NCBI GenBank assembly: GCA_023136205.1
Contig: JAGLRQ010000053.1
Coordinates: 1 to 11,631, forward strand
Reading direction: 5' to 3'
Source: Candidatus Auribacterota bacterium
GTDB taxonomy: Bacteria > Auribacterota > UBA6266
DNA length: 11,631 nt
The notes beneath the pieces were generated by a model. It saw only the letters and a program-made list of their open reading frames with translations, was not told the DNA's origin and did not search any database. Each line of letters opens with the position of its first letter. Position 1 is the first letter of the stretch. Position numbers and translations under genes: made by a program. Positions 1 through 11,631 of this stretch are shown here, one piece after another.

Positions 1-52
1 CATCTGCCTTCTAAGCAGAAAGTCGTTGGTTCGAGTCCAACCGGGCGTGCCA
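1..52 (+). tRNA. tRNA-Arg (anticodon TCT), 3' portion; the 5' part lies off the left edge
   Basis: Anticodon stem tctgc (3-7) pairs with gcaga (15-19). The 7-nt loop cttctaa (8-14) has U33 and A37 in place, giving anticodon TCT (10-12). Variable loop aagtc (20-24). T-arm gttgg/ttcgagt/ccaac (25-41). Acceptor 3' strand cgggcgt, discriminator g, genome-encoded CCA (50-52), then a T6 run. Confidence 0.8.
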
Positions 53-102
53 TTTTTTCTTAGAGCTGTTTTTCCTGCCGGCCTTATTTTAAAAATATTA
101 CT

Positions 103-130
103 TTGACATACGTGAAAAGAGTTTTAAAAT
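103..130 (+). promoter_or_regulatory. Candidate sigma70-type promoter for the glmM-like/glmU-like gene pair
   Basis: TTGACA (103-108), a 16-nt spacer, then TAAAAT (125-130). It lies about 75 nt upstream of the ATG at 207. Sequence match only. Confidence 0.4.
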
Positions 131-206
131 GGAGTTTTCTCCGCATTAGCAGGGGTTATGGCGGAATGAAGGCTGAGGGAAAGAGTTAACGGAAGGGAAA
201 ACAATC

Positions 207-1562
207 ATGAGCAAGCTGATTGTAAGTGTTTCAGGGGTAAGAGGAATAATCGGGGATTCATTAACGCCCGAGGTTGCTTTTCATTTTGGCGCTGCGTTTG
301 GGAGCCTGAACAAGGGAGGTAAAATTGTTCTGGGCAGGGATTCAAGGGTAAGCGGCCCCATGTTAAGTTCAGCTGTTGTTGCGGGGCTTGTTTCTACCGG
401 CTGTAAGGTAGTGGATATAGGCATAACATCAACACCGACGGTTCAAATAATGACCAAAGAGTTAAATGCTGACGGAGGGATTGAAATAACCGCCAGCCAT
501 AATCCGGTTATGTGGAACGGACTCAAATTTATGTCGGCTGATGGGCTTTTTGTAAGCGAAAGAACTGCAGAAAAGATTAAACAGGCTGCCTTGAATAAAG
601 AGTATTCTTTTATGTCCTGGGATAAGCTTGGAAGTATCAGCCGAGATTCATCGGCCGTTAAAACCCATATTCAGAAAGTTCTTTCGCTCCCTTACCTTGA
701 TGTGGATGCTGTGAGAAAAAGGAGGTTTAAAGTAGTTGTTGATACAGTAAATGGAGCCGGGGGCGGCATAATTCCTGAACTTCTTAAGCGGCTCGGGTGT
801 GAAGTAACGGTTTTAAACGAGGAGATGAACGGGCATTTTGCGCATGAGCCTGAGCCTCTTCCTAAAAACCTAAAACAGCTTTCCGATGAAATTGTGAAAA
901 GAGGGGTGGATATAGGTTTTGCAGTAGACCCTGACGTTGACAGATGTGCCATTGTAGATGAAAAAGGGACTCCGATTGGGGAAGAATATACCCTTGTAAT
1001 AGCAGCAAAGCTGGTTCTTTCAAAGAAAAAAGGAAAGGTAACCGTAAATGTTTCAACATCCATGGCAATTGATGATGTTGCCCGGGAGTATGGCTGTCCT
1101 GTGGAAAGAACAAGGGTGGGAGAAATTAATGTGGCACTAAAGATGAAAGATAACAAATCAGTTGTGGGCGGAGAAGGTAATGGCGGGGTGATGATTCCGG
1201 ATATTCATATAGGAAGGGATGCTCCGGTAGCCTGTGCTCTTGCCCTGCAGTATTTACTTGAATCAGGGAAAACACTTTCTGAGATAAAAGAAACTCTTCC
1301 AAAGTATGTGATATTTAAAGGGAAGGTAGATCTTGAAGATAAAGAACCAAAACTTATTCTCGAAGGGTTAAAAAAGCTTATGGCAAAGGAAAAGGTTGAT
1401 GAAACAGACGGCCTTAAAATTATAAGGGATAAATCATGGGTTCATATCAGGGGGTCTAATACTGAGCCTATAGTAAGAATTTATGCAGAGGCGGAAAATC
1501 TTAAAAAAGCCAAAAGGCTGCATGATGAATTTAGAGAAAAAGTTTTGAGGGTTACCAGATAA
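207..1562 (+). CDS. glmM: alpha-D-phosphohexomutase, phosphoglucosamine mutase type (GlmM/PMM-PGM family)
   Basis: 451-aa ORF carrying all four family signatures in order: phosphoserine loop TASHNP, metal loop FAVDPDVDR, sugar loop GGEGNGG, phosphate loop RGSNTEP. The N-terminus SVSGVRG resembles the archaeal/PMM-like subgroup rather than E. coli GlmM (GTDGIRG). The GlmM assignment rests on context: a GlmU-like gene lies 50 nt downstream and glmS is adjacent. SD ggaaggg precedes the ATG. Confidence 0.7.
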   Translation: MSKLIVSVSGVRGIIGDSLTPEVAFHFGAAFGSLNKGGKIVLGRDSRVSGPMLSSAVVAGLVSTGCKVVDIGITSTPTVQIMTKELNADGGIEITASHNPVMWNGLKFMSADGLFVSERTAEKIKQAALNKEYSFMSWDKLGSISRDSSAVKTHIQKVLSLPYLDVDAVRKRRFKVVVDTVNGAGGGIIPELLKRLGCEVTVLNEEMNGHFAHEPEPLPKNLKQLSDEIVKRGVDIGFAVDPDVDRCAIVDEKGTPIGEEYTLVIAAKLVLSKKKGKVTVNVSTSMAIDDVAREYGCPVERTRVGEINVALKMKDNKSVVGGEGNGGVMIPDIHIGRDAPVACALALQYLLESGKTLSEIKETLPKYVIFKGKVDLEDKEPKLILEGLKKLMAKEKVDETDGLKIIRDKSWVHIRGSNTEPIVRIYAEAENLKKAKRLHDEFREKVLRVTR

Positions 1563-1612
1563 AAAATAGGGTTAAAATAGTTATGTGTTACAGGCCTAAT
1601 TAGGAGTTTGAT

Positions 1613-2869
1613 GTGAAAATGATATGTATCTTTGAAGATGGGGGATATGCGGATTTATTACCATTGGTTTATATGCGCCCTGTATATGAGCTTCGCTGCG
1701 GAATAGATCTTCTTAGAGATAAAATAATAAGAAAATACCCTGCCTCGAAAGTAAACCTGTTTTGCCGTGATTACCTTTCTGCAACATTAAAGGAGCGGAC
1801 AACAGACGCTATAAACGAGATAGTTAATGGAAACAAAGGCACTATTTTCATAAACGGGCGTATACTTTTAAACAGGCAAATACCGGTTGAGGGAAAGGAA
1901 GAGGTAGGTATTAAAGGCAAAACGCTTGTATATGCGAGATTGAATAAAGATCACTCGAAATTAATGACCCCTGAGATGTTTCTTGAAGGAAAGGCCCTGG
2001 CAAAGCTTAAGGGTAAAGTTCCATTTGTAAAGGTTGAAGACATTACGGTTTTTAAATACTCGTGGGAGATAATCCATGAGAACGGAAAACAGATATGTAA
2101 AGACTTTGATGACCTGGCAGAAGGCGGAAAAATAAAGGGCAAGCTCTACGATGGTGTTCATATACTTGATAAAAAGAATTTATTTATAGATGAAGGTTCT
2201 ATTGTTAAGCCTGGAGTTGTGTTGGATGCGAGTGAGGGCTCTATATATATAGGCAAAGGGGTAAAGGTATTTCCTAATGCGGTGATAGAAGGTCCCGCGT
2301 ATATAGGGGATAATAGCACGGTAAAAATAGGGGCAAAGATATATAGAGGAACGAGTGTGGGAGAGGTTTGCAAGGTAGGAGGAGAGGTTGAGGAGAGCAT
2401 ATTTCATTCTTATTCGAACAAACAGCATGAAGGATTTCTTGGACATGCATATATCGGCCAGTGGTGCAACATTGCAGCGGACACAAATGACAGCGATTTG
2501 AAAAATAATTACAGTACTGTCAGGGTCTATGTTAATGGTAAATATGTTGACACAGGGGAAGTGTTTGTGGGGCTGACAATGGGAGATCATTCCAAAACCG
2601 GGATTAACTCGATGTTTAATACCGGTACGGTTATTGGTTTGAATGTTAATATTTTTGGAGCTCAGCTTCCTCCAAAATTCGTTCCTTCATTCTGCTGGGG
2701 GGCTAGCGGTGTATTTGTTGTTTATCAGCCCGATAAAGCAATAAAGGTTGCCGAGAGAGTTATGGCAAGAAGAAAAATCAAATTAACAAAAGCTCAAAAA
2801 GATCTTTTTATGTTTCTTTATAAAATGACCGAAAGTGAGCGAGACTTGAACCGGATTATTCAACTGTAA
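1613..2869 (+). CDS. GlmU-like sugar-phosphate nucleotidyl/acetyl-transferase with a left-handed beta-helix ('alternative bacterial GlmU'-type)
   Basis: 418-aa ORF. The C-terminal half is rich in hexapeptide [LIV]-G-x4 repeats (IYIGKGVKVFPNAVIEGPAYIGDNSTVKIGAKIYRGTSVGEVCKVGGEV...). The N-terminal ~190 aa resemble a nucleotidyltransferase fold but lack the canonical GxGTR(M/L) loop (IFEDGGYADLLPL instead). GTG start at 1613 lies 6 nt after AGGAG (1602-1606); ATG at 1619 is an alternative. The gene sits between the mutase and glmS. Confidence 0.6.
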   Translation: MKMICIFEDGGYADLLPLVYMRPVYELRCGIDLLRDKIIRKYPASKVNLFCRDYLSATLKERTTDAINEIVNGNKGTIFINGRILLNRQIPVEGKEEVGIKGKTLVYARLNKDHSKLMTPEMFLEGKALAKLKGKVPFVKVEDITVFKYSWEIIHENGKQICKDFDDLAEGGKIKGKLYDGVHILDKKNLFIDEGSIVKPGVVLDASEGSIYIGKGVKVFPNAVIEGPAYIGDNSTVKIGAKIYRGTSVGEVCKVGGEVEESIFHSYSNKQHEGFLGHAYIGQWCNIAADTNDSDLKNNYSTVRVYVNGKYVDTGEVFVGLTMGDHSKTGINSMFNTGTVIGLNVNIFGAQLPPKFVPSFCWGASGVFVVYQPDKAIKVAERVMARRKIKLTKAQKDLFMFLYKMTESERDLNRIIQL

Positions 2870-4682
2870 CACTTTTTGCCAGGTTCCTCGGCTGATCGAT
2901 ATTACATCCTCTCTTTACCGCTATGAAATAAGCGAGCAGCTGAAGAGGTATTACCGTTAAAAAAGGGTTTAAAACATCAATTGTTTTCGGTATATATATT
3001 GTATGATCGGCTAATTTTTTAATCTTTTTATCGCCTTTATTTGCTACGGCGATAACTTTTCCGTTTCGTGCTTTTATTTCTTCAATATTAGAAAGTATCT
3101 TGTCATAAACATTATCGCTTGTCGCAATAACAACAATGGGCATGTCTTTATCTATAAGAGCAATAGGCCCGTGCTTCATTTCTGCCGCCGGGTATCCTTC
3201 AGCGTGGATGTAAGATATTTCTTTAAGTTTCAATGCTCCTTCTAAGGCTGTTGGGAAATTATATCCCCTTCCCAGATAGAGAAAATTGTTTTTGTTAGAG
3301 TAGAGGTTTGCAATTTTTTTAAAGCTATTTTCTTCTTTTAAAATAGCTTTAATTTTGGATGGTATGGTTTTTAACTCTTTTAAAATAGATTTAGCCCTCT
3401 TTTTTGAGGTATTGCGCATACGGCCGAGGTGAAGCGCAAGTAAAAGCAAAACCGTTACCTGGGAAGTGAATGCCTTGGTTGACGCTACGCCGATTTCAGG
3501 CCCCGCATGAAGGTATATACCCCCATGTGATTCCCTGGAGATAGATGATCCAACTGCATTACAAATACCCATAATTGTTGCATTTTTTGTTTTTGCTTCA
3601 TGGATAGCGGCCAGAGTATCTGCGGTTTCTCCGGATTGGCTGATTGCAATTACAAGTGTTTGTTTATTTAATATGGGGTTGCGGTATCTAAATTCAGAGG
3701 CATATTCGACTTCAACGGGTATTCTTGCTATGTCTTCTATCATGTATTCGCCGATAAGTCCCGCGTGCCATGAGGTACCGCATGCGGTAATAACAATTTT
3801 TTCTATATCCTTCAATTTGTCTTCAAAAACAAGGAGTCCGCCGAGTTTGGATGTTGAATGTTTCTCATCGATTCTACCTCTCATGGAGTTAGTTATTGAT
3901 TCAGGCTGTTCATGTATTTCTTTGAGCATAAAATGTTCAAAGCCGCCTTTTTCAATCATATCTATATTCCATGAGACCTCTTCGATTTTTTTTGTTACCG
4001 ATTTATTATGGATTGTTTTTATATCAAAAGAATTTCTTCTCATGACGACCATTTCATCGTTTTCTAGATGAATTATTTTTTTTGTGTGCCTTAATGTCGC
4101 GGCGATGTCTGATGCCACAAACATTTCGTTTTTGCCGACGGCAACTATAAGGGGGCTTCCTTTTTTTGCGGCAACAATTTCATTGGGGTTTTTACAGCAT
4201 ATTACAGCAATGCCATAGGTTCCTTCTATGAGCTTTAACGCTGATCTGACCGCGTCTGAAAGATTACCTTTGTAATATTGTGATATAAGGTGGGCAAGCA
4301 CTTCGGTGTCTGTATCGCTCAAGAACCTAACGCCTTTTTTAAAAAGCTTTTTTCTAAGGTAATCATAATTTTCAATTATGCCGTTGTGCGCTACGGCTAT
4401 TTCCCGGGATTGGTCAAAGTGAGGGTGTGTGTTTTTGAGGAGCGGGGCTCCGTGTGTTGCCCACCTGGTATGTGCAATTCCAATATGCCCGGGTAAACTC
4501 TTTTTTTTGAGTTTTTTTTCGAGCTTTGATATATTTCCTACAGATTTAGTACATGATATGTGATTGTCATTAATGGTAGCTATGCCTGAAGAATCGTAAC
4601 CCCTGTACTCAAGGCGCTTTAGTCCGCTAAGTAATATTTCCTTAGCGTTTCGCTTTCCGATATATCCGATTATTCCGCACAT
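2856..4682 (-). CDS. glmS: glutamine--fructose-6-phosphate aminotransferase (isomerizing)
   Basis: 608-aa ORF starting MCGIIGY, the Ntn Cys nucleophile. It has a class-II glutaminase domain, two SIS domains (GTSWHAG..., SQSGETADT) and the characteristic C-terminus ...LAKSVTVE. Confidence 0.95.
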   Translation of the reverse strand: MCGIIGYIGKRNAKEILLSGLKRLEYRGYDSSGIATINDNHISCTKSVGNISKLEKKLKKKSLPGHIGIAHTRWATHGAPLLKNTHPHFDQSREIAVAHNGIIENYDYLRKKLFKKGVRFLSDTDTEVLAHLISQYYKGNLSDAVRSALKLIEGTYGIAVICCKNPNEIVAAKKGSPLIVAVGKNEMFVASDIAATLRHTKKIIHLENDEMVVMRRNSFDIKTIHNKSVTKKIEEVSWNIDMIEKGGFEHFMLKEIHEQPESITNSMRGRIDEKHSTSKLGGLLVFEDKLKDIEKIVITACGTSWHAGLIGEYMIEDIARIPVEVEYASEFRYRNPILNKQTLVIAISQSGETADTLAAIHEAKTKNATIMGICNAVGSSISRESHGGIYLHAGPEIGVASTKAFTSQVTVLLLLALHLGRMRNTSKKRAKSILKELKTIPSKIKAILKEENSFKKIANLYSNKNNFLYLGRGYNFPTALEGALKLKEISYIHAEGYPAAEMKHGPIALIDKDMPIVVIATSDNVYDKILSNIEEIKARNGKVIAVANKGDKKIKKLADHTIYIPKTIDVLNPFLTVIPLQLLAYFIAVKRGCNIDQPRNLAKSVTVE

Positions 4683-4757
4683 AGTTATAAATTAGTAGAT
4701 AGGGTTAAACAAAAGAAGATTATTGCCATATAATTGAAATATTGTAAAGCATAATTT

Positions 4758-6260
4758 TTAGCATATTTTGATATTATACTCCTTAACTTTCCTATCCAGC
4801 CTGTTTCTGGAAATTCCGAGAAGTTTGGCTGCTTTACTTTTGTTGCCGGTTGTATATTGAACAGCTTTTTCTATATGGTTTTTTTCAGCAGATTTTAGCA
4901 TCCAATCAGTTGTTATCGGCGTGCGTTTCGTCCTTATTTCAGCAGGAAGATCTTCTGCTTTGAGAATTTTACCTGTTCCCAAGACCATGGCTCTCTCAAC
5001 CGTATTCTTAAGCTCTCTGATATTTCCATGCCAGTTGTATGAAAGAAGAATATCCATTGCCCTGGGTTCAATTGACGTTATTACTTTTCCCATAGATTTT
5101 GTCTGTTCTTCAATAAGGTGTGTAAGCAGGTCGGGGATATCTTCCTTATGTTCTCTTAATGGAGGCATGTAAAGTTCTATTACCTTTACCCTGTAATACA
5201 GGTCTTCCCTGAAGCGTCCTTCTTCAATTGCTTTCTCGAGGTTTTCATTGGTAGCCGCAATTATGCGGGCCTCGGATTTTATGGTTTCCGTTCCGCCTAC
5301 CCTTTCAAATTCTTTTTCCTGCAAAACCCTTAAAAGTTTTACCTGGATATGGGGTGATAGCGTTCCGATTTCATCCAGGAAAATAGTTCCTTTTGCGCAA
5401 AGCTCGAATCGTCCTATTTTTCTGGCAACAGCTCCTGTAAAAGCGCCTTTTTCATGTCCAAAGAGTTCGCTTTCAAGCAATGTTTCCGGTAGAGCTGAGC
5501 AATTGATACATATGAAGGGATGATGTTTCCTCGGGCTTTTTATGTGGATCATCCTTGCTGCGAGTTCTTTGCCGGTACCGCTTTCACCTCGAATCAGTAT
5601 GGTAGAATCAGTCCCCGCGACGGTATTTATTAGTTCATGAACGGCCTTCATTTTATTGCCGGATCCTATCATTTTTGTTGATTGGGGTATTTGGGTTTTC
5701 AGGTTTTTGACTTCTATCCCCATTTCGTTATGAAGTCGGGCATTTTCAATGGCGATAGCTGCCTGGTTTGTAAATGCGACCAGCAAAGAAAGGTCTTTAT
5801 CATCGAAATTGCCGGATTTGTTATTGATAACTTCGATTACTCCAATTATTTTCCCCCTTATTTTTATGGGGGCGCAGATAATCGAACGTGTCGGGTAATT
5901 TAGTTTCTTACTTATATCTCCGAACCATCGTTTATCTTCCTGGACATTATTGGAGATGGTGGGTTTCCCTTCATTTATTACCCATCCTGCAATCCCCTGT
6001 CCCGCCTTTATCTTAAAATTCTTTATCTCGTTTGCCTTTTTACCGGTAACTGTTTTAAATGCAAGGTAATTAGCGTTTTTTTCAATCAATATTATAGAAC
6101 TTGCTTCAGAATTTAAAACATCACTTGCCGTTTTCAGTACTCGTTCCAGGACTTCTGTGATGTCCAGAGTCGAATTGATGATCTGATTTATTTCAAAAAG
6201 TTTTAGAAGGTTTGTTTTTCCGATATCTTTAAAAAGTTCAGTAGTTTCTTTAGTTTCCAT
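4758..6260 (-). CDS. sigma54-dependent transcriptional activator (bEBP) with GAF sensor, AAA+ domain and Fis-type HTH
   Basis: The N-terminal ~170 aa are GAF-like (ILIEKNANYLAF..., GIAGWVINEGKP..., IGVIEVINN). The central AAA+ domain has Walker A GESGTGKE, the sigma54-contact loop GAFTGA, Walker B IFLDEIG and the R-finger region. The C-terminus carries the HTH GNKSKAAKLLGISRNRLDRKVKEY. There is no receiver domain. The track starts at a TTG (6266). I prefer the ATG at 6260, which lies 8 nt after an AAGGA SD on the - strand. Confidence 0.9.
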   Translation of the reverse strand: METKETTELFKDIGKTNLLKLFEINQIINSTLDITEVLERVLKTASDVLNSEASSIILIEKNANYLAFKTVTGKKANEIKNFKIKAGQGIAGWVINEGKPTISNNVQEDKRWFGDISKKLNYPTRSIICAPIKIRGKIIGVIEVINNKSGNFDDKDLSLLVAFTNQAAIAIENARLHNEMGIEVKNLKTQIPQSTKMIGSGNKMKAVHELINTVAGTDSTILIRGESGTGKELAARMIHIKSPRKHHPFICINCSALPETLLESELFGHEKGAFTGAVARKIGRFELCAKGTIFLDEIGTLSPHIQVKLLRVLQEKEFERVGGTETIKSEARIIAATNENLEKAIEEGRFREDLYYRVKVIELYMPPLREHKEDIPDLLTHLIEEQTKSMGKVITSIEPRAMDILLSYNWHGNIRELKNTVERAMVLGTGKILKAEDLPAEIRTKRTPITTDWMLKSAEKNHIEKAVQYTTGNKSKAAKLLGISRNRLDRKVKEYNIKIC

Positions 6261-6298
6261 TGTCAATTTCCTTTTTCAATATGTTTCATTATATGACA

Positions 6299-6315
6299 TG
6301 CTTCATTTTGAAGCA
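6299..6315. promoter_or_regulatory. 17-bp perfect palindrome TGCTTCA-N3-TGAAGCA; candidate bEBP operator/UAS
   Basis: tgcttca (6299-6305) and tgaagca (6309-6315) are exact reverse complements. The site lies ~40-55 nt upstream of the bEBP start and ~190 nt upstream of the -24/-12 element. Its format resembles NtrC-family sites. No binding data. Confidence 0.3.
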
Positions 6316-6368
6316 ATGTTTTATAACTATCTATTTCATAAGGGGTTATATAATATATTCTATCTGGC

Positions 6369-6386
6369 GTTGCTCCAAAATGCAAC
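6369..6386. promoter_or_regulatory. Inverted repeat GTTGC-N8-GCAAC; second candidate UAS
   Basis: gttgc (6369-6373) and gcaac (6382-6386) are reverse complements. The centre lies ~120 bp upstream of the -24 element, a typical enhancer distance for sigma54 promoters. Confidence 0.25.
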
Positions 6387-6497
6387 CATTGTTTTTATTG
6401 TTGTAATATATGAAGGGGCTTTTGTTTGATACTTAAAAAGTTCTCTATTTTTTTTATCGACGGTATAGTGTATTTTTTAAGTATATGAGGGATTAAA

Positions 6498-6513
6498 TGG
6501 CATGGCTTTTGCT
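6498..6513 (+). promoter_or_regulatory. sigma54 (-24/-12) promoter
   Basis: TGGCATGGCTTTTGCT matches the consensus TGGCAC-N5-TTGCW with a single C-to-T deviation and exact GG-N10-GC spacing. The predicted start is ~20 nt before the ATG at 6544, with SD AAGGAGG (6531-6537) in between. The sigma54 activator gene is divergent from it. Confidence 0.7.
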
Positions 6514-6543
6514 CTGTTATAAACTGGGCAAAGGAGGTGCAAG

Positions 6544-6942
6544 ATGAAAAAGCTAATTTTAATGTTGGTTGCAGTATCAATGGCAACAGGAGTTATTACA
6601 ACTGCTTCGGCAGGAGAGAAAGAATGGGCTACAGCAGGCAAAATACTTGCAGGAGTTACAGCGTATCAGTTTTTGAGCGGGAACTTACTCCCACAGCAGA
6701 GAGCATATTATGGTTACTCATATTATGCGCCAAGACGTTTAAGACATTATTATCAAACACCAAGGCATTATTCACCAAGAAGGTACCGTTCCTCAAACAC
6801 GTATTATGTTCCTTATTCACCAAGAAGGCACCGTTCTTCAAACACGTATTATGTTCCTTCATACACAACGTATACAACTACATATGCTGCTAACTATTCT
6901 GAGCCTGTTGTAATTGTAGAAGAAAACAATCGTTGGTGGTAA
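6544..6942 (+). CDS. secreted Tyr/Arg/Pro-rich tandem-repeat protein, unknown family
   Basis: Strong SD. Sec signal MKKLILMLVAVSMATGVITTASA|GE. By my count the ~109-aa mature part contains 19 Tyr and 12 Arg. It carries reiterated [AST]PRR motifs and two near-identical 15-aa units, SPRRYRSSNTYYVPY and SPRRHRSSNTYYVPS. The tail is TTYTTTYAANYSEPVVIVEENNRWW. I recognise no family. Confidence 0.7.
   Translation: MKKLILMLVAVSMATGVITTASAGEKEWATAGKILAGVTAYQFLSGNLLPQQRAYYGYSYYAPRRLRHYYQTPRHYSPRRYRSSNTYYVPYSPRRHRSSNTYYVPSYTTYTTTYAANYSEPVVIVEENNRWW
6771..6860 (+). repeat. 2 x 45-bp in-frame tandem repeat
   Basis: 6771-6815 and 6816-6860 differ at 3 of 45 positions. They encode the 15-aa units above. 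More degenerate PRR-containing units lie just upstream (about 6730-6770). Confidence 0.9.
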
Positions 6943-6946
6943 TTTT

Positions 6947-7444
6947 ATGAAAAAGCTTATAATTACATTAGTCCTGGGTGCCGCTTTTTGCGGCACCTGC
7001 CTCTTCCCTGAAGATGTTCTGGGAGACGAAAAATTATTCTCATCGAATTGCGTTATAGTTGAGGGAGGGAAGATAAGAGTTGTTGGTACGGGGAAGCCTC
7101 CGGTATCTTCGTATTATGGGAAATCTCAAAAGAGGCTTATGGCTCGCCGGGCGGCGATCATTGACGCTTATAGGAATCTTGCCCGAACCCTTGCTGGTTT
7201 TTCAGGTAGGGCTATAAAGTCTGGCAACATAAAATCAAATGGATATATAGTTGACGCGAGATGCGTAGAAACAAGATATTACAAAGACGGAACGGTTCAG
7301 ATTATTCTGGAAATGCCTGGAATTAGTAAAAAAAGAGTTTGCAAAAGAGAGGGCATAAAGGTTTATAATGATGAATTGGTTTCAATCGATAGAAAAACTT
7401 TTGCAGTAAGTGAACAGGAATGGTTAGGAATGAAACCCAAGTAG
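6947..7444 (+). CDS. exported FlgP/LPP20-like protein, single module
   Basis: The start lies 4 nt after the previous stop. Signal-like N-terminus MKKLIITLVLGAAFCGTC. The lead-in strand IRVVGTGKPP is followed by KRLMARRAAIIDAYRNLARTLAG. This matches the helix signature (RLMA-RAA-lDAYR-LAE) I recall from Vibrio FlgP and the LPP20 lipoprotein family. Confidence 0.6.
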   Translation: MKKLIITLVLGAAFCGTCLFPEDVLGDEKLFSSNCVIVEGGKIRVVGTGKPPVSSYYGKSQKRLMARRAAIIDAYRNLARTLAGFSGRAIKSGNIKSNGYIVDARCVETRYYKDGTVQIILEMPGISKKRVCKREGIKVYNDELVSIDRKTFAVSEQEWLGMKPK

Positions 7445-7531
7445 GGTCATGGGTCAAGGGTGAGGAGAAATTTGTATTCCCCAGAACCTAAAACCCACAA
7501 CCAATGACCCATGGTAAGGAAGGAGGATGAA

Positions 7532-8836
7532 ATGTTAAGGAAATTAGGAGTACTGGTTTTGATGGCGAGTTTGAGTATGCCTCTGGTTTGTATGCCGGTT
7601 TATGCTACAGCCAAAGGTCAGCAGAAGCTTATGGCGGAAAGAGCGGCGAAGGTTGATGCCTATAGAAATCTTGCTGAAAGGGTGAAAGGGCTTAGAATAG
7701 ACGCTAACACCTATGTCAGGGATTTTGTCGCGGAAAGCGACCAGATTAATACATCATTTGATCATTTTATAAAAGGCGCTGCCATTGTTCCGGGAAGCGA
7801 TAGATGGGATGGTGAAGTTTACACTTTAAGAGCCAGGCTTACGTTAGAACAGGTAGTTAAATTTATTAAAACATACTACAAGAAAACAAGGTTTCTTTTT
7901 TGGACGCATACAAAAATTCAGCAGATAGAGACTTACAATAAGGAGTATAAGGTGATAGAGGTTGAAGGTTCGGGGACGATCAGAACCGCTGATCCTTCTG
8001 AGAATTTACAGACTAAACCTGCTAGGATTACCGATGGGATACCCGGCTGGGAAGGAGTTACAGCTCGTGGCAGGTTGATGGCTGAAAGAGCTGCAAAGGT
8101 TGATGCGTATAGAAATCTTGCTGAAAAGGTTAAAGGAGTAAGAATCACTTCAAGTACTTATGTCAGAGACTTTGTGGCGGAGAATGATCAGATAAATACT
8201 GCACTGGACACGTATATAAAAGGCATTCGTTTGTCAGGCCCGTACAGATATTTGCCTGACGGAATAGCTGAATGTGATGTTGAAGTAACTATAGTGGATG
8301 TAATAAAAGAAGTTCATGAAATATGGAAACGGTTTGAAAGAAGAGGCTATAGATTTAGAAAAGTAAGGTGGAAGAAAGTAAGGTGGGAAGAGGTTGTAAC
8401 TCAGCAGAATATTCGCGTGATAAGAGCGACTGGTTCCGGTGTTCCTCCGGAGAAATATATAGAAAAGGGGCCTGTGTCTCAGGCCCCTTCCCAGGCTGTT
8501 TCTGCGCCTTCCTGGGCTTCTCAGGCTGTGTCAGCCAAAGGTTATGGGGTTCCGAGGGAAGGTGAGGCCGGAACCGTTGCAAAGCTTAATGCGGGTAGGG
8601 CGGCTGAGGTAGACGCAAGAAGAAATCTTGCTGAGATTATTTATGGAGTAAAAATTGACGCGAATACAACTGTCAGGGATTTTGCTGTTCAAAATGACCA
8701 GGTGAATGCGAAAGTCAAAACTTTTATGGCAGGTGCTAAAGTAAGCGATCCTCTTTTTCTTGAGGATGGAAGCGTTGAGGTAACAGTTTCGATTTTATTG
8801 CGGGGTTTATGGGATTCCATAAAAAAAAGCAGGTAA
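7532..8836 (+). CDS. exported protein with three tandem FlgP/LPP20-like modules
   Basis: I prefer the ATG at 7532, 5 nt after AGGAGG (7521-7526), over the track start at 7511. Signal MLRKLGVLVLMASLSMPLVCMPVYA|TA. The three modules begin LMAERAAKVDAYRNLAERVKGLRIDANTYVRDFVAESDQINT, LMAERAAKVDAYRNLAEKVKGVRITSSTYVRDFVAENDQINT and LNAGRAAEVDARRNLAEIIYGVKIDANTTVRDFAVQNDQVNA. A basic RKVRWKKVRW repeat and an SQA-rich linker lie between modules 2 and 3. Confidence 0.65.
   Translation: MLRKLGVLVLMASLSMPLVCMPVYATAKGQQKLMAERAAKVDAYRNLAERVKGLRIDANTYVRDFVAESDQINTSFDHFIKGAAIVPGSDRWDGEVYTLRARLTLEQVVKFIKTYYKKTRFLFWTHTKIQQIETYNKEYKVIEVEGSGTIRTADPSENLQTKPARITDGIPGWEGVTARGRLMAERAAKVDAYRNLAEKVKGVRITSSTYVRDFVAENDQINTALDTYIKGIRLSGPYRYLPDGIAECDVEVTIVDVIKEVHEIWKRFERRGYRFRKVRWKKVRWEEVVTQQNIRVIRATGSGVPPEKYIEKGPVSQAPSQAVSAPSWASQAVSAKGYGVPREGEAGTVAKLNAGRAAEVDARRNLAEIIYGVKIDANTTVRDFAVQNDQVNAKVKTFMAGAKVSDPLFLEDGSVEVTVSILLRGLWDSIKKSR
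7631..8200 (+). repeat. Intragenic duplication (modules 1 and 2 of the triple-module gene)
   Basis: Hand alignment of 7631-7753 with 8078-8200 gives 94/123 identical nucleotides and 36/42 identical residues. A third, more diverged copy starts near 8585. A separate 15-bp tandem (aaagtaaggtgg at 8360-8371 and 8375-8386) encodes KVRW-KKVRW. Confidence 0.8.
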
Positions 8837-8892
8837 AATAAATTGATGTCTTTGGCTGGTAAATACAATTGGTTTAGAAAGAGAGGGATCCA

Positions 8893-9018
8893 ATGAAAAA
8901 GGCTGTAATTTTAATAGTTTTGTTTTCTGTCATTTCAATTGTAATTGTGGGATGTACCGAAAAGTATGTTGTTACCGAAAGGACCGTGGTTGAAACAAGA
9001 GAAGTTGTTGTAGAATAG
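8893..9018 (+). CDS. 41-aa lipoprotein, below the ORF-track length cut-off
   Basis: My own translation: MKKAVILIVLFSVISIVIVGCTEKYVVTERTVVETREVVVE*. SD GAGGG (8883-8887) lies 5 nt before the ATG. It has a textbook n/h-region and lipobox IVG|C. The stop is 11 nt before the next gene's ATG, whose SD GGGGAGG overlaps that stop. The 21-aa mature peptide is an alternating Val/Thr/Glu/Arg beta-strand-like sequence. Confidence 0.6.
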   Translation: MKKAVILIVLFSVISIVIVGCTEKYVVTERTVVETREVVVE

Positions 9019-9029
9019 GGGAGGTTGAA

Positions 9030-10163
9030 ATGAAACGGTTAATATTATTATTTTTCGTTTGTATATTTGTAACAACTTGCGTTTTTGCTCAGATGGAAAC
9101 TACTATAGTGGCGAAGGGCATGGCTGCCGTAAGGGGGGTCGGCCCGGATGCTGTTCTCAGCGCGAGAGATGAGGCGATTAACCGTGCTTTAAGGAATGCT
9201 GTGGAACAAGCGGTGGGCAGCCTTATTGATTCTGAAACTATGGTCCAGAATTTTCAGCTGCTGGATGACCAGGTTTATTCAGAGGTAAAAGGATATGTAA
9301 AGAGTTATGAGATTGTAGATGATAATAATGGTGAAGGGGGGATTTATCAAACAAGGGTTAAAGCTGTTGTTTTACTGGGTACCCTAAGAAAGAACCTTAA
9401 AGCTTTTAATATAGTCAAGGAAAAGCTTAACAAACCCAGAATCATGATTGTTTTTTCTGAGACCGTAGATGGCCTTGAGCAACCCGGACAAACGGTTCAA
9501 ACCGGAATGGAAAAGAGTTTTTTGAACAACGATTTTAAACTGATAGATAAAGCTCAAATGGAAGCCGTGAAATTACGGGATGCTGCTGTTTACTATGAAA
9601 ATCCTACAGAAGCAGTTGCTCTTGGCAGGAGGTTCGGAGCTGAGGTTATTGTAGTTGGACAGGTCTCTTCCGATTTAGTTGATTCCAGCTGGCCGTATGG
9701 CGTTTGTGTCTTTGCCTATGAAGCGCAGGCCACCGCAAAAGCTATTGATGTTGATTCTGCCCAGGTTATAGTTTCAGACGGTGCCAGTGCCCAGGCAAGG
9801 GCCGGAGGAAGAGTCCCTTCGGCGCGCAAAGCAGCCAAGGAAGCAGGCGTGAAGCTGGCAGGGAAAATGATGGACCAAATAGTTGAAAACTGGAGAACCA
9901 AAGTTTACAATACAATGGATATTCAGATTGTCGGCTTTAATGCTGACGCCGATAACCGCCTTGCTTTTGAGAAGGCACTTGAGCAGGTCAGGGGCGTAAG
10001 AAGTGTAAACGAAAGAAGTTTTTCAAGGGATGTAGTGATTATAGATGTAACAATTGACGGGGCATTGTATAAAGGTTTTGAAGAGATAATAAATACCCTT
10101 CCTGATGTTGATGTAAAAATTAAGGGAAAAACTCAAAACAGGATAGATTTAGATTTTTTATAA
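9030..10163 (+). CDS. exported FlgT-like multidomain protein: LPP20/FlgT_N-like head, TolB-N/CsgG-like alpha/beta domain and a C-terminal domain
   Basis: Signal MKRLILLFFVCIFVTTCVFA|QM. The N-domain reads IVAKGMAAVRGVGPDAVLSARDEAINRALRNAVEQAVGSLIDSETMVQNF...YQTRVKAVV, which fits the pattern x-G-x-A...AR-xA-xxAL-xxA-xQ-xG I associate with FlgT_N/LPP20. The middle region (PRIMIVFSE...FKLIDKAQ...GAEVIVVGQV) resembles the CsgG/LpoB/TolB-N type fold. The family call is by eye only. Confidence 0.45.
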   Translation: MKRLILLFFVCIFVTTCVFAQMETTIVAKGMAAVRGVGPDAVLSARDEAINRALRNAVEQAVGSLIDSETMVQNFQLLDDQVYSEVKGYVKSYEIVDDNNGEGGIYQTRVKAVVLLGTLRKNLKAFNIVKEKLNKPRIMIVFSETVDGLEQPGQTVQTGMEKSFLNNDFKLIDKAQMEAVKLRDAAVYYENPTEAVALGRRFGAEVIVVGQVSSDLVDSSWPYGVCVFAYEAQATAKAIDVDSAQVIVSDGASAQARAGGRVPSARKAAKEAGVKLAGKMMDQIVENWRTKVYNTMDIQIVGFNADADNRLAFEKALEQVRGVRSVNERSFSRDVVIIDVTIDGALYKGFEEIINTLPDVDVKIKGKTQNRIDLDFL

Positions 10164-10242
10164 GATTGTAACACTTTTACATTGAGTGGTGTATTATCTG
10201 TATATAATTTGTGGTGTGCTAAGAACTTACAGGGGTATTAAG

Positions 10243-11298
10243 ATGCTTTTTATGAAAAGATGGTTTTTTATAGTGGGCATGTCTTTTTTGATTATTGCTG
10301 TTGTCGGCCTTGATGGTACTGCTGCCGCGAGGAGAAGAACATCTTACGATAGAAAAGAAAGGCCGGCCCGAAAAAAGAAGAAAAAGAAAGTTGTCCAGCA
10401 GATGGTGCTTCCTCCTATTGTTGGGCCGAGAAAGACTATAGCGGTTGCCGATTTCGAGAACAAGGCAGGTGCTCAAGCGCGGTGGAATCTCGGAAACGGT
10501 ATGGCAGAAATGCTTACCACTTCCCTGGTAAACACGAACAGATTTATTGTTGTTGAACGCCAGAATATCCGGGGTATTATTCAGGAACAGGATTTTTCTG
10601 TAAGCGGCAGAACAATTAATGTCGGGGCCCCTGAGATAGGGCGCCTTTTAAATGCTCAGATTCTTGTAAGCGGAGCCATAACAGAATTTTCACAGCGTTT
10701 TTTTGATTCTGGAAGCCTTTTTCAATATAAAGGTGTTTCTCTGGGGGTGAAATCAGCCACTGCTCATGTAGCCCTTAATATAAGGATGTATGATACTACT
10801 GCCGGTGAAGTAATTGCCTCTAAGCGTGTTGAAGGCAAGGGGAATGTTTCCGGCCTTAGTATCGGCTATTCTGAAAGTGATTGGGGGGTTGATTTTGATA
10901 ACTTTAAAGCATCTCCACTTGGTAAGGTAACTCAACAAGCGATTGACGAAGCGGTCTATTATATCTGTTTGGAGATGCAGAAGGTTTCATGGCAGGGTAC
11001 TGTTGTTACTATCAAAGGCGGTAAAATATATCTTAATTGCGGCGCGAATTCCAATGTTAAAGCCGGTGATGAATTTGAGGTTTACAGAAAGGGCGAGGAG
11101 CTTATTGATCCTGATTCAGGGCTGTCTCTTGGTTTTGAGACAAAAAAAATAGGATTGGTTAAGGTTTTCGAAGTTGAAGATAAGTTTTCGCTTGCAGATT
11201 CTGTTTCGGGCGGAAAATTTGAGAGGGGAGATATAATTAAATTTATTCCACCACCACCGGTTCCATTGCCCGAGGAGGGTACAGTAATATCTCAATAG
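10243..11298 (+). CDS. CsgG-family outer-membrane channel-like protein with a polybasic N-terminal linker and an extra C-terminal domain
   Basis: It aligns by eye to E. coli CsgG block by block: KTIAVADFENKAG...GNGMAEMLTTSLVNTNRFIVVERQNIRGIIQEQ matches KIFVSVYNIQDETGQ...ATAMLVTALKDSRWFIPLERQGLQNLLNER, ILVSGAITEF matches IMVEGSIIGY, and HVALNIRMYDTTAGEVIAS matches QIAVNLRVVNVSTGEILSS. I prefer the ATG at 10243, 7 nt after AGGGG, to the GTG at 10186. There is no Cys after the hydrophobic segment, so it is not a canonical lipoprotein. A RRR...RKKKKKK tract spans 10324-10389. The C-terminal ~100 aa (GKIYLNCGANSNVKAGDEFEVYRKGEELIDPDSG...GDIIKF) end in PPPPVPLPEE. Confidence 0.75.
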   Translation: MLFMKRWFFIVGMSFLIIAVVGLDGTAAARRRTSYDRKERPARKKKKKKVVQQMVLPPIVGPRKTIAVADFENKAGAQARWNLGNGMAEMLTTSLVNTNRFIVVERQNIRGIIQEQDFSVSGRTINVGAPEIGRLLNAQILVSGAITEFSQRFFDSGSLFQYKGVSLGVKSATAHVALNIRMYDTTAGEVIASKRVEGKGNVSGLSIGYSESDWGVDFDNFKASPLGKVTQQAIDEAVYYICLEMQKVSWQGTVVTIKGGKIYLNCGANSNVKAGDEFEVYRKGEELIDPDSGLSLGFETKKIGLVKVFEVEDKFSLADSVSGGKFERGDIIKFIPPPPVPLPEEGTVISQ

Positions 11299-11301
11299 GG
11301 A

Positions 11302-11383
11302 AAATCACAAATTCCAAATCCAAAGTTACAATGACCGAAACACTTGTTCCTATTTGTGATTTGTTGTTTGTAAATTGTGATTT
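11302..11383. repeat. Three copies of an 11-nt motif (one inverted, two direct) between the two CsgG-like genes
   Basis: aaatcacaaat (11302-11312) is the exact reverse complement of atttgtgattt (11352-11362). A third copy, aattgtgattt (11373-11383), has one mismatch and ends 7 nt before the SD GGAGG (11391-11395). Confidence 0.6.
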
Positions 11384-11401
11384 CTAAAGGGGAGGGTTTT
11401 T

Positions 11402-11631
11402 ATGAAAGGGTTTTTATCATGTATATTTGTTTGGGTTTTTGTTCTTTTGGTTTCTTATGCCGGTGCCGGCATAAAAAAAACCATAGCAGTTTCTGATTTC
11501 GAAAACAAAGCGGGGTTCAGTTCCGAATGGAATCTTGGCAGCGGCATGGCAGAAATGGTTACCACTTCCCTTACCAATTCGGGTAGTTTTATTGTCGTGG
11601 AAAGGCAGAATATTCAGGGTATCCTTCAGGA
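11402..11631 (+). CDS. second CsgG-family paralogue, 5' partial; continues past the right edge
   Basis: Absent from the ORF track because no stop is reached. SD GGAGG lies 6 nt upstream. My translation: MKGFLSCIFVWVFVLLVSYAGAGIKKTIAVSDFENKAGFSSEWNLGSGMAEMVTTSLTNSGSFIVVERQNIQGILQ. It is collinear with residues ~65-130 of the preceding gene but lacks the polybasic linker. Confidence 0.75.
   Translation, partial: MKGFLSCIFVWVFVLLVSYAGAGIKKTIAVSDFENKAGFSSEWNLGSGMAEMVTTSLTNSGSFIVVERQNIQGILQ

Follow-up and report, generated by a model that had tools for sequence, protein, structure and literature searches.

Organization of the gene cluster

In this study, we analyzed a stretch of 11,631 nucleotides (nt) from a Candidatus Auribacterota bacterium (assembly GCA_023136205.1, contig JAGLRQ010000053.1, positions 1 to 11,631), in the following called the window, with respect to a run of seven open reading frames (ORFs), P1 to P7 in their order, in its right part. 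All positions refer to the whole window, and "right of 11631" designates the source contig beyond it. The run is a real, conserved, non-flagellar envelope cassette, and its proteins can best be regarded as free-standing paralogues of FlgP and FlgT ring parts combined with CsgG-family domains. Related loci are given L numbers, L001 and L002 being copies of the source contig region. T5 denotes the family of P5-type proteins of 377 amino acids (aa), and G6 the P6-type CsgG-family proteins.

A preliminary description of the window had listed seven ORFs on one strand with gaps of 4, 87, 56, 11, 79, and 103 nt, and the ORF scan returned the same coordinates (Table 1). The 87-nt gap places the start of P3 at 7532, which is preceded by a strong ribosome binding site (GGAAGGAGG), while an in-frame ATG at 7511 is without Shine-Dalgarno (SD) sequence. 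The 79-nt gap places the start of P6 at the ATG at 10243; gene callers choose the GTG at 10186, resulting in a protein of 370 aa. An SD sequence had been assigned to each ORF. SD-like motifs are present ahead of P1, P3 (7532), P4, P5, and P7, while those of P2 and P6 are weaker. A hydrophobic N-terminal export signal was found in all seven proteins and a canonical lipobox only in P4. As described before, no cytoplasmic protein or recognizable enzyme was found among the seven ORFs by Pfam and NCBIfam scans. Pfam matches to Sigma70_r4, HTH_67, E3_binding, MiaE_2, and PpPFK_gamma were below threshold and dismissed as noise.

A single transcript over the seven genes is plausible, as the short gaps, the common strand, and the terminator-like sites within the ORF run, predicted at chance level (6 observed vs. 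5.0 ± 2.7 expected), fit it. The sigma-70 and terminator scans were uninformative and set aside.

Table 1. Predicted features of the cassette and its promoter region in the window
Feature	Position (nt)	Strand	Description
Activator gene	4758..6266	-	GAF / sigma54 AAA+ / HTH_8 enhancer-binding activator, divergent from the operon
Sigma54 promoter	6498..6513	+	-24/-12 promoter TGGCATggcttTTGCT, consensus scan
P1	6544..6942	+	132 aa, secreted, signal peptide; 45-nt tandem repeat (x2) at 6768-6859
P2	6947..7444	+	165 aa, exported; one FlgP/LPP20-type module, aa 58-130 (nt 7118-7336)
P3	7532..8836	+	434 aa, exported; three FlgP/LPP20 modules, nt ~7616-7852, 8066-8344, 8531-8800
P4	8893..9018	+	41-aa mini-lipoprotein, lipobox IVGC
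P5 (T5)	9030..10163	+	377 aa, FlgT-like, N/M/C domains; N-domain insert nt 9222-9290; M domain nt ~9438-9908
P6 (G6)	10243..11298	+	351 aa; CsgG-family domain nt 10429-10998, with hairpin segments nt 10690-10761 and 10834-10914 (residues 150-173 and 198-224); FlgT_C-like domain nt 11020-11244
P7	11402..11631	+	N-terminal 76 aa of a second CsgG-family + FlgT_C protein; gene cut by the window end

Sigma54-dependent control

The operon had been described as sigma54-driven, and this was borne out. The site TGGCATggcttTTGCT is the only one in the window with at most one mismatch to the sigma54 consensus and lies 31 nt 5′ of the first ATG. The divergently encoded activator was matched by the Pfam models Sigma54_activat (3.2e-70), GAF_2 (7.4e-23), and HTH_8 (3.8e-12). 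This divergent activator is kept in 11 distinct related loci, and the motif [TC]GGCA[TC]-N5-TTGC[TA] occurs in nine of the 11 intergenic regions between activator and cassette; L011, a further locus, has TGGCACgcaaaTTGAT. The strict motif was counted 16 times in 2.24 Mb of locus sequence. Eight non-redundant occurrences fall into 6.3 kb of activator-cassette spacers, where 0.045 would be expected, i.e. about 175-fold above background. Sigma54 control of the cassette in this lineage is well supported by these predicted sites. It is not universal and is restricted to part of the Auribacterota-like lineages; in L004, L005, L007, and L010, the cassette is present without the activator. A search for activator-binding palindromes 5′ of the promoter yielded AT-rich repeats only.

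FlgP/LPP20-type proteins P2 and P3

Significant profile or fold matches were obtained to the LPP20, CsgG, and FlgT families named in the preliminary description. The four FlgP/LPP20 copies counted there are supported as FlgP-type modules, three by Pfam matches within P3 and the fourth, in P2, indirectly by BLASTP to P3 only. P3 matched Pfam LPP20 (PF02169, InterPro IPR024952) in three stretches with 1.7e-18 and 67.2 bits (cut-off 25.9). Gap-free alignments of each of its modules were obtained with FlgP chains from in situ motors of solved structure (8z5n_2, 9yfg, and 9yds of Vibrio; 9hmf_C of C. jejuni) at expectation values (E) of about 3e-6 to 9e-6, and they span the ring-forming hairpin region. 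In the ring-forming subset of FlgP proteins, an inserted beta-hairpin that separates the SHS2 helix from the second strand correlates with oligomerization into rings (PMC12222027). P2 showed no Pfam match at E ≤ 1 and matched the P3 modules in BLASTP with 5e-8 (P2 residues 58-103), 2e-6, and 3e-4; in other loci, homologues of P2 with 165-285 aa are encoded ahead of the triple-module gene.

Both proteins have signal peptides without canonical lipobox. Among loci of the Planctomycetes-Verrucomicrobia-Chlamydiae (PVC) type, a lipobox was found in three of 19 P2 homologues (L2) and in four of 27 P3 homologues (L3). FlgP and Lpp20 are lipoproteins.

The FlgT-like protein P5

P5 comprises an SHS2/FlgP-like N domain with a conserved 22-aa insert, a CsgG/FlgT_M-like M domain without hairpins, and a small alpha/beta C domain which is not FlgT_C-like. 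The AlphaFold2 (AF2) model, based on 36 homologues, had a predicted local distance difference test (pLDDT) value of 76.6. The two best Foldseek matches, both over the full length, were 8z5n_0 (5.7e-11) and the FlgT crystal structure 3w1e (4.6e-9), with low template modelling (TM) scores of 0.26-0.31. The former is chain 0 (352 residues) in the LPHT-ring structure of Vibrio and is taken here to be FlgT. By phmmer, the N-terminus of P5 matched C. jejuni FlgP (9hmf_C, E 2e-3). The match to FlgT_N was below threshold for P5 itself (E 0.013; 16.4 bits vs. a gathering cut-off of 28.8); among 36 family members, FlgT_N was matched in 20 and CsgG in four, and Geobacter-type homologues have both as precomputed Pfam domains. 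When a profile of the family was compared with PDB chains, only C. jejuni FlgP was retrieved (E 0.005), while FlgT (3w1e, 8z5n) was not at E ≤ 1.

In the N domain, the SHS2 helix (residues 39-65) is separated by the insert from the next strand (88-98), and this is the position where FlgP carries its ring-building beta-hairpin (PMC12222027). The best conserved residues of the whole family (D67, S68, E69, N74, Q76, L77, L78, D80, and Y83) lie in this insert, which has low pLDDT in the monomer model. Profile-profile comparison of the M domain with the CsgG core of P6 by hhalign gave an E of 1.2e-3 at a probability of only 19%, and in this alignment the M domain misses exactly the two hairpin segments of P6.

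Leptospira LipL46 is a distant relative of P5 and the only named, experimentally handled one that was found (NCBIfam 5e-11, residues 43-333; 41.9 bits vs. a model cut-off of 400). Work on this lipoprotein has dealt with it only as antigen, adhesin, and plasminogen binder, and P5 is not LipL46. Matches of P5 to designer PPR proteins in phmmer were an artefact of eight repeated 8-bit matches of one 50-residue stretch, none of which was significant singly.

The CsgG-family proteins P6 and P7

In P6, an N-terminal signal or anchor and a polybasic linker are followed by the CsgG and the FlgT_C-like domain. The Pfam model CsgG (PF03783) was matched with 5.4e-34 and 117.8 bits (cut-off 20.8) over positions 9-208 of 210, while FlgT_C (1.3e-5; 26.0 vs. 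27 bits) and FlgT_M (3.3e-5; 24.5 vs. 31.2 bits) remained below threshold. The P7 fragment within the window matched CsgG with 1.7e-9 and 37.7 bits. The full-length protein (297 aa, L002:5956-6849) did so with 1.3e-41 and 142.7 bits and also matched FlgT_C below threshold (2e-6); P7 orthologues are 62-64% identical to P6. By phmmer, E. coli CsgG was found with P6 at 6e-5. The AF2 monomer of P6 (pLDDT 80, predicted TM score 0.72) has long hairpin strands with low-confidence tips. Its best Foldseek match was to the M and C domains of FlgT (2.8e-19, TM 0.57 over 291 columns; 3w1e 8.4e-18), an N domain being absent from P6; CsgG followed with about 6e-9 and a TMq of 0.33, nearest to its pre-pore form. 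As judged by sequence, P6 and P7 are a CsgG-family domain plus a FlgT_C domain, i.e. FlgT minus its N domain. P5, P6, and P7 are all variations on the FlgT plan, and FlgT is the best structural match of each. The former assignment of one FlgT-like and two CsgG-like proteins was correct in its domain matches and too sharp in its split. A FlgO-like nature of P6 was discarded, as Pfam FlgO gave an E of 0.2 and the top 50 Foldseek matches included no FlgO chain.

In an alignment of 41 sequences, the two hairpin segments are conserved and Gly-rich, have the lengths of TM1 and TM2 of CsgG, and show alternating hydrophobic or aromatic residues (in P6 F160, V162, F165, L167, and L169; L205, F207, Y209, W214, F216, and F221); the P6 hairpin region aligns to CsgG TM1. 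The hairpins are kept in P6 and P7 and lost in the paralogous M domain of P5, which argues that they are functional. For a CsgG-type barrel or pore built from these predicted hairpins, we consider the chances for and against about equal. Of the CsgG-type pores assumed previously, the family assignment and the hairpins stand; the lipid anchor is missing, and the fold is nearer to FlgT. No lipobox was found in P6 or P7. Among G6 homologues, it is present in eight of 44 at PVC-type loci vs. 22 of 30 at loci of deltaproteobacterial type, and the usual lipidation in the latter speaks in favour of a pore. CsgG needs lipidation at its Cys to reach the outer membrane.

The same data bear on another possibility, a periplasmic collar or brace without a channel of its own. 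P6 and P7 would then act like FlgT_M, TolB_N, LpoB, or TsaP domains, and a ring or lattice with the FlgP-like proteins would tie the outer membrane to the cell wall or surround a different outer-membrane machine, e.g. a type IV or Tad pilus secretin or an autotransporter. The structural match of P6 to FlgT well ahead of CsgG, the missing lipoboxes, and weak LpoB and TolB_N matches of P6 and P7 are consistent with it, as is the Vibrio H-ring, which makes no membrane pore. The C-terminal half of P6 also resembles TsaP by sequence (phmmer E 9e-4). The ring formed by TsaP surrounds PilQ, the secretin of the type IV pilus, and PelC, which the P5 M domain and the P6 core resemble by fold, is a lipoprotein dodecamer ring around PelB; unlike the situation with TsaP and PelC, the P5/P6 locus has no LysM domain, secretin, or PelB-like porin. 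Against a collar stand the strong, full-length Pfam CsgG matches and the conserved length and amphipathic pattern of hairpins that P5 has lost. Overall, we regard a collar as possible, with the balance of probability against it.

Two further observations concern these proteins. Residues 28-50 of P6 (window ~10320-10400) form a strongly basic linker (RRRTSYDRKERPARKKKKKKVV) between the N-terminal hydrophobic segment and the CsgG domain, and this linker is missing from the paralogue P7. Also, the ENA copy of the source contig is 171 nt shorter over the two paralogous CsgG genes (L001 11134-13095 vs. L002 4740-6849) and contains no intact P6, which may be due to collapse of the paralogues during assembly.

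The small proteins P1 and P4

P1 is composed of a signal peptide, a Gly/Ala zipper-like segment, a Tyr/Arg/Pro-rich repeat, and the C-terminal sequence PVVIVEE..WW. The tandem repeat in its gene encodes the repeat YSPRR[YH]RSSNTYYVP. P1 had no Pfam match, no database family fits it, and it is recognizable by sequence in its closest relatives only. ORFs of the same build occur in the same position in L012, L013, L020, L023, and L044. Those of L020 (5408-5725), L023 (5370-5654), and L044 (5276-5596) have a signal peptide, a Gly/Ala zipper-like segment, and a Tyr/Pro/Arg-rich tail and end with PV[VY][IVY][VY]EE..C/W. Members of this positional class contain up to 27 Tyr in 106 aa, and their ending …V-Y/V-E-E-x-C/W resembles the tail of P4 (…VVEE-type vs. 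…VVE). The class is restricted to part of the Auribacterota-like lineages.

The mature part of P4 consists of 21 aa with VVxE repeats and ends with VVVE. In Auribacterota- and Omnitrophota-type loci (besides the window in L004, L007, L018, L019, L025, and L030), the interval from the LPP20 gene to the 377-aa gene contains one to three ORFs of this class, with 41-79 aa. All have a lipobox Cys, in many cases with TYHEHYY or TEKYVV behind it, and a conserved VVE-type tail at the C-terminus. Because the large subunits are mostly without lipoboxes in those loci, P4 probably provides a lipid anchor from a separate chain. Per locus, the presence of a mini-lipoprotein and lipidation of G6 were inversely related as a trend only (odds ratio 0.23, p 0.08). 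The mini-lipoprotein genes are at times overlooked by gene callers.

Distribution, conserved core, and variants

With E ≤ 1e-3 as limit, 9,099 cluster representatives fall into the 377-aa family, and with E ≤ 1e-30, 901; nearly all are of full length. Scanning the genomes of GTDB species for this family yielded 79 loci, the ORFs of which were labelled with hidden Markov models built from the window proteins. Closer T5 relatives (40-75% identity) come from Auribacterota, Omnitrophota, metagenome-assembled genomes (MAGs) labelled Chlamydiota, Verrucomicrobiota, and one Planctomycetia MAG. Distant full-length relatives (24-35% identity) are found in Geobacter and other Desulfuromonadales, Syntrophaceae, Acidobacteriota, Nitrospirota, Fibrobacterota, WOR-3, and Armatimonadota. 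A search for a cultured host by means of the Geobacter-type homologue returned metagenomic or MAG proteins only.

T5 adjoins a CsgG-family gene in 49 of 64 non-redundant loci with enough flanking sequence, which come from Auribacterota, Omnitrophota, Geobacter-type Desulfuromonadales, Acidobacteriota, and others, and FecR-domain genes recur near T5 in distant phyla, while LPP20-type genes are located upstream of T5 in 25 of 61 loci. The conserved core is the 377-aa protein with a CsgG-family protein, often together with a FecR-domain protein; the LPP20 proteins are accessory. The gene content given in the preliminary description and the recurrence of the set as a unit in other genomes, a question raised there, are supported; beyond the core, sigma54 control and the Tyr-rich ORF are limited to certain lineages. 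Chance co-location of unrelated exported genes was dismissed, as the cassette recurs with different flanks in many phyla.

In Omnitrophota- and Planctomycetia-type loci, the set is reduced to a minimal trio of T5, G6, and FecR, with FecR on the opposite strand. The deltaproteobacterial-type operon L050 consists of genes for LPP20, TPR+SLH, T5, GNA1162-like (5.1e-20), CsgG, PEGA, and FecR proteins. A Geobacter cluster (L084 5291-16437) contains T5, a TPR+CsgG protein of 664 aa, a protein of 739 aa with three fn3 domains, and a 105-aa protein and has recA, a pilT-like gene, and recX at one end and alaS at the opposite end.

Several of these arrangements fit the collar described above. In L009 (248-5937), a distant T5 homologue is located directly behind a Tad/type IV pilus-like set of an FHA-T2SSE gene, two T2SSF genes, and one FHA gene; the pilT-like gene lies near the Geobacter T5; and the TPR+SLH protein of the delta-type variant is a cell-wall-binding protein. 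In Verrucomicrobia MAGs (L037-L040, L055), T5 stands alone, without CsgG-family or LPP20 neighbour, beside an opposite-strand gene for a protein of 1,600-2,600 aa, which in L039 is an autotransporter (PF03797, 6e-58). Pilus, secretin, and autotransporter genes are, however, absent from the annotated Auribacterota and Omnitrophota loci.

Relation to flagella

The preliminary description had named flagellar genes immediately right of 11631 as the observation that would speak for an ordinary flagellar locus, and had supposed the gene set to be separate from flagellar loci. No flg, fli, or mot genes are found right of 11631 on the source contig, and no flagellar gene cluster was present within ±10 kb in ten Pfam-annotated neighbourhoods. 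The only flagellum-related match in these was a weak Flagellin_N match of a 126-aa ORF (L005 16494-16874), about 5 kb 3′ of the cassette. The cassette is carried by Ca. Tritonobacter lacicola (type MAG, Ace Lake) and Ca. Theseobacter exili, and by Ca. Auribacter fodinae too. According to PMC9324843, none of the Ace Lake Auribacterota MAGs (88-100% complete) encodes flagella, while Ca. Auribacter fodinae does. Based on the other MAGs and the neighbourhoods, the presence of the cassette appears to be independent of flagella.

The flagellar assemblies to be compared are the Vibrio H-ring, with a FlgT ring of C26 symmetry and rings of the lipoproteins FlgP and FlgO of C58 symmetry and without membrane pore (bioRxiv 10.64898/2025.12.02.691832), and the Campylobacter basal disk, in which FlgP forms concentric rings, the innermost of trimers, and the model of FlgQ resembles two FlgP units (PMC12222027). 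FlgP-type SHS2/LPP20 modules are common to both and the cassette, and multi-module FlgP-like proteins occur on both sides (FlgQ; P3). The H-ring and the cassette also have in common a FlgT-like protein, of which the N domain is SHS2 and the M domain CsgG/TolB_N-like, as well as FlgT_C-like domains. All cassette parts are exported, and the known H-ring and disk parts act beneath the outer membrane. Unlike the H-ring, the cassette is located away from flagellar genes in lineages reported without flagella, its large subunits have no lipid anchors, and it lacks the partners MotX, MotY, FlgH, and FlgI. Unlike FlgT, the 377-aa protein has a different C domain and its family profile does not retrieve FlgT, while the proteins of M+C type belong to the CsgG family by sequence and contain hairpin inserts. 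FlgO was absent among the top 50 structural matches.

It is very improbable that the cassette encodes a common flagellar accessory (H-ring or basal disk) whose genes happen to lie outside the flagellar loci. Flagellar representatives exist in every domain family, and in many bacteria flagellar genes are under the control of sigma54 and an enhancer-binding protein; the activator gave sub-threshold matches to FlbD and FlgR, among many other models. At least one cassette-bearing Auribacterota species reported as flagellated, Ca. Auribacter fodinae, and the Flagellin_N match would also fit. Against this, the cassette is found in MAGs of Auribacterota reported without flagella and in those of Omnitrophota and Verrucomicrobia, its annotated neighbourhoods are free of flagellar clusters, and its proteins are not orthologues of FlgT and FlgP, as the P5 profile misses FlgT, lipoboxes are absent, and the architectures differ (triple module; CsgG domain with hairpins).

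Relation to CsgG-type systems

P6 and P7 share with CsgG of E. coli and HfaB of Caulobacter the strong match to the full Pfam CsgG model, and equivalents of the TM1 and TM2 hairpins of CsgG are kept with similar length and Gly-rich, alternating pattern. Unlike CsgG, they have no lipobox and an additional FlgT_C domain, and their fold match to CsgG is weaker than that to FlgT (TM 0.33 vs. 0.57 for P6). Homologues of csgA/B/E/F or hfaA/D products were not found among the operon proteins in Pfam and NCBIfam scans.

The nearest non-flagellar relative of the cassette is the CsgG/lipoprotein/GNA1162 (DUF799) cluster (Neisseria GNA1162; A. baumannii D1G37_12595-12605), while H-ring and basal disk are the nearest characterized assemblies. 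This widespread cluster combines a CsgG-family protein with small envelope lipoproteins, and its loss in A. baumannii lowers poly-N-acetylglucosamine (PNAG), Cup pili, and biofilm (bioRxiv 10.1101/2021.05.19.444899). The L050 variant links both, as its GNA1162-like gene, seen in this distant variant only, lies between the 377-aa gene and the CsgG gene. The window operon differs by the absence of a GNA1162-like or DUF4810 gene (Pfam, NCBIfam) and by its FlgP-type and FlgT-like proteins, the FlgT_C domain on the CsgG proteins, and sigma54 control.

A strict curli- or holdfast-type system, in which P6 and P7 would be the channel, P1 and possibly the mini-lipoproteins the fibre or anchor subunits, and the FlgP- and FlgT-like proteins periplasmic accessories, was the form favoured by the preliminary description and is a sub-case of the envelope assembly proposed below. 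The CsgG-family matches with kept hairpins would agree with it, and P1 is secreted, of low complexity, and repeat-bearing, stands first after the promoter, and is replaced there by ORFs of the same build in other loci. The A. baumannii phenotype, the GNA1162-like gene of the delta-type variant, and hexosamine-pathway genes flanking the cassette in several Auribacterota lineages point in the same direction. The lack of CsgA/B/E/F and HfaA/D homologues and the absence of P1-type genes from most cassette loci argue against it, P1 is a putative fibre former only, and the hexosamine neighbourhood may be inherited synteny. We consider this form unlikely.

A full-text literature search for LPP20 together with CsgG and FlgT yielded flagellar-motor papers only, and the searched literature on flagellar evolution contained no description of such gene clusters, in line with the preliminary description, which was aware of none. 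To our knowledge, the motor literature notes only the origin of FlgP in a broad family.

Proposed envelope assembly

We propose that the cassette encodes a non-flagellar assembly under and tethered to the outer membrane, built of paralogues of flagellar outer-ring parts; the probability of this proposal appears evenly balanced. The function, including ring formation and a role in secretion or anchoring, we infer from homology by analogy. The FlgP-type modules and P5 may polymerize into rings via the insert between helix and strand of the SHS2 fold, as FlgP does, with P3 acting as a covalently linked FlgP trimer. P6 and P7 may oligomerize into a central ring like CsgG, FlgT, PelC, and TsaP, and their amphipathic Gly-rich hairpins could insert into the outer membrane as a CsgG-type barrel. 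P4 would attach the complex through its VVE tail. The Tyr-rich P1 could either be a substrate which the complex displays or exports, or serve as an additional accessory. Most likely, the assembly would export or anchor a surface polymer or fibre or would brace the outer membrane, and it would be switched on by a signal sensed by the GAF domain of the activator.

In its widest form, the proposal would describe an autonomous outer-membrane machine, in which FlgP-type rings and a FlgT-like adaptor surround a CsgG-type barrel, anchored by mini-lipoproteins, with Tyr-rich VVE-tail proteins as substrates or anchors. This machine would be widespread in non-flagellated diderm phyla and would be the free-standing relative or the ancestor that gave rise, by recruitment, to the flagellar H-ring and basal disk. 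We put this form forward tentatively and hold it to be rather doubtful.

Several points weigh against the proposed assembly. The putative rings and the putative pore are deduced from homology only, and the seven genes as one transcript are a plausible, unproven prediction. P2 and P3 lack the lipid anchor found in FlgP and Lpp20. P6 and P7 are without lipobox, and by fold they match best to FlgT, a periplasmic protein that makes no pore. The TM scores of P5 with FlgT are low, its C domain differs, and its family profile misses FlgT. The inverse relation between mini-lipoprotein and G6 lipidation is a trend confounded by phylogeny. The evidence concerning flagella comes from neighbourhoods and from MAGs other than that of the window. 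No substrate, inner-membrane partner, or energy source was identified for the cassette.

The outer disks and rings (FlgP, FlgT) of high-torque motors are frequently presented as additions made during evolution. Here, the complete set of FlgP-type, FlgT-like, and CsgG-family proteins is present as a conserved, separately regulated operon in mostly uncultured phyla. If rings around a CsgG-type conduit were indeed formed, this would be a new envelope export or anchoring machine in PVC-related and deltaproteobacterial-type bacteria, and the cassette would be a concrete candidate for a non-flagellar precursor of H-ring and basal disk. It also ties the widespread non-curli CsgG/GNA1162 clusters to a larger family of envelope assemblies.

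Genes flanking the cassette

The system probably extends beyond P1 to P7, with the activator on the left and two genes on the right. Right of 11631, the rest of P7 is followed on the opposite strand by genes for a DUF3307 protein, presumably a membrane protein, and an exported protein of 441 aa with an N-terminal FecR domain and a C-terminal LPP20 module (L002 6874-8909), tail-to-tail with the operon. The observation extends to L011, L091, L092, L010, and L050. FecR-domain proteins probably belong to the system, given that they recur beside the 377-aa/CsgG pair in loci of the Omnitrophota, Planctomycetia, and delta types.

On the left, hexosamine-pathway genes flank the cassette in several Auribacterota lineages with otherwise differing flanks (window 207-4682; L091 1-5747, L004 2107-4881, L011 1377-4354). 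The set comprises a glmM-like PGM/PMM gene, a gene for an NTP_transf_4 + hexapeptide protein, and glmS, with nagA-like and nagB-like genes in relatives. This flank could indicate a link to an amino-sugar polymer or could be inherited synteny.

Further right on the source contig, genes for a CHASE2 cyclase and a GAF-SpoIIE phosphatase as well as Mla/ABC genes are located. The CHASE2-adenylate/guanylate cyclase gene is conserved 3′ of Auribacterota cassettes (L001 15245-18533, L091 15389-19384, L011 13416-15395). The GAF-SpoIIE phosphatase gene is present in L001 and L091, the latter having in addition genes for an RsbW-like kinase and a STAS protein. The CHASE2 and GAF-SpoIIE genes would represent a second signalling module beside the sigma54-dependent one.

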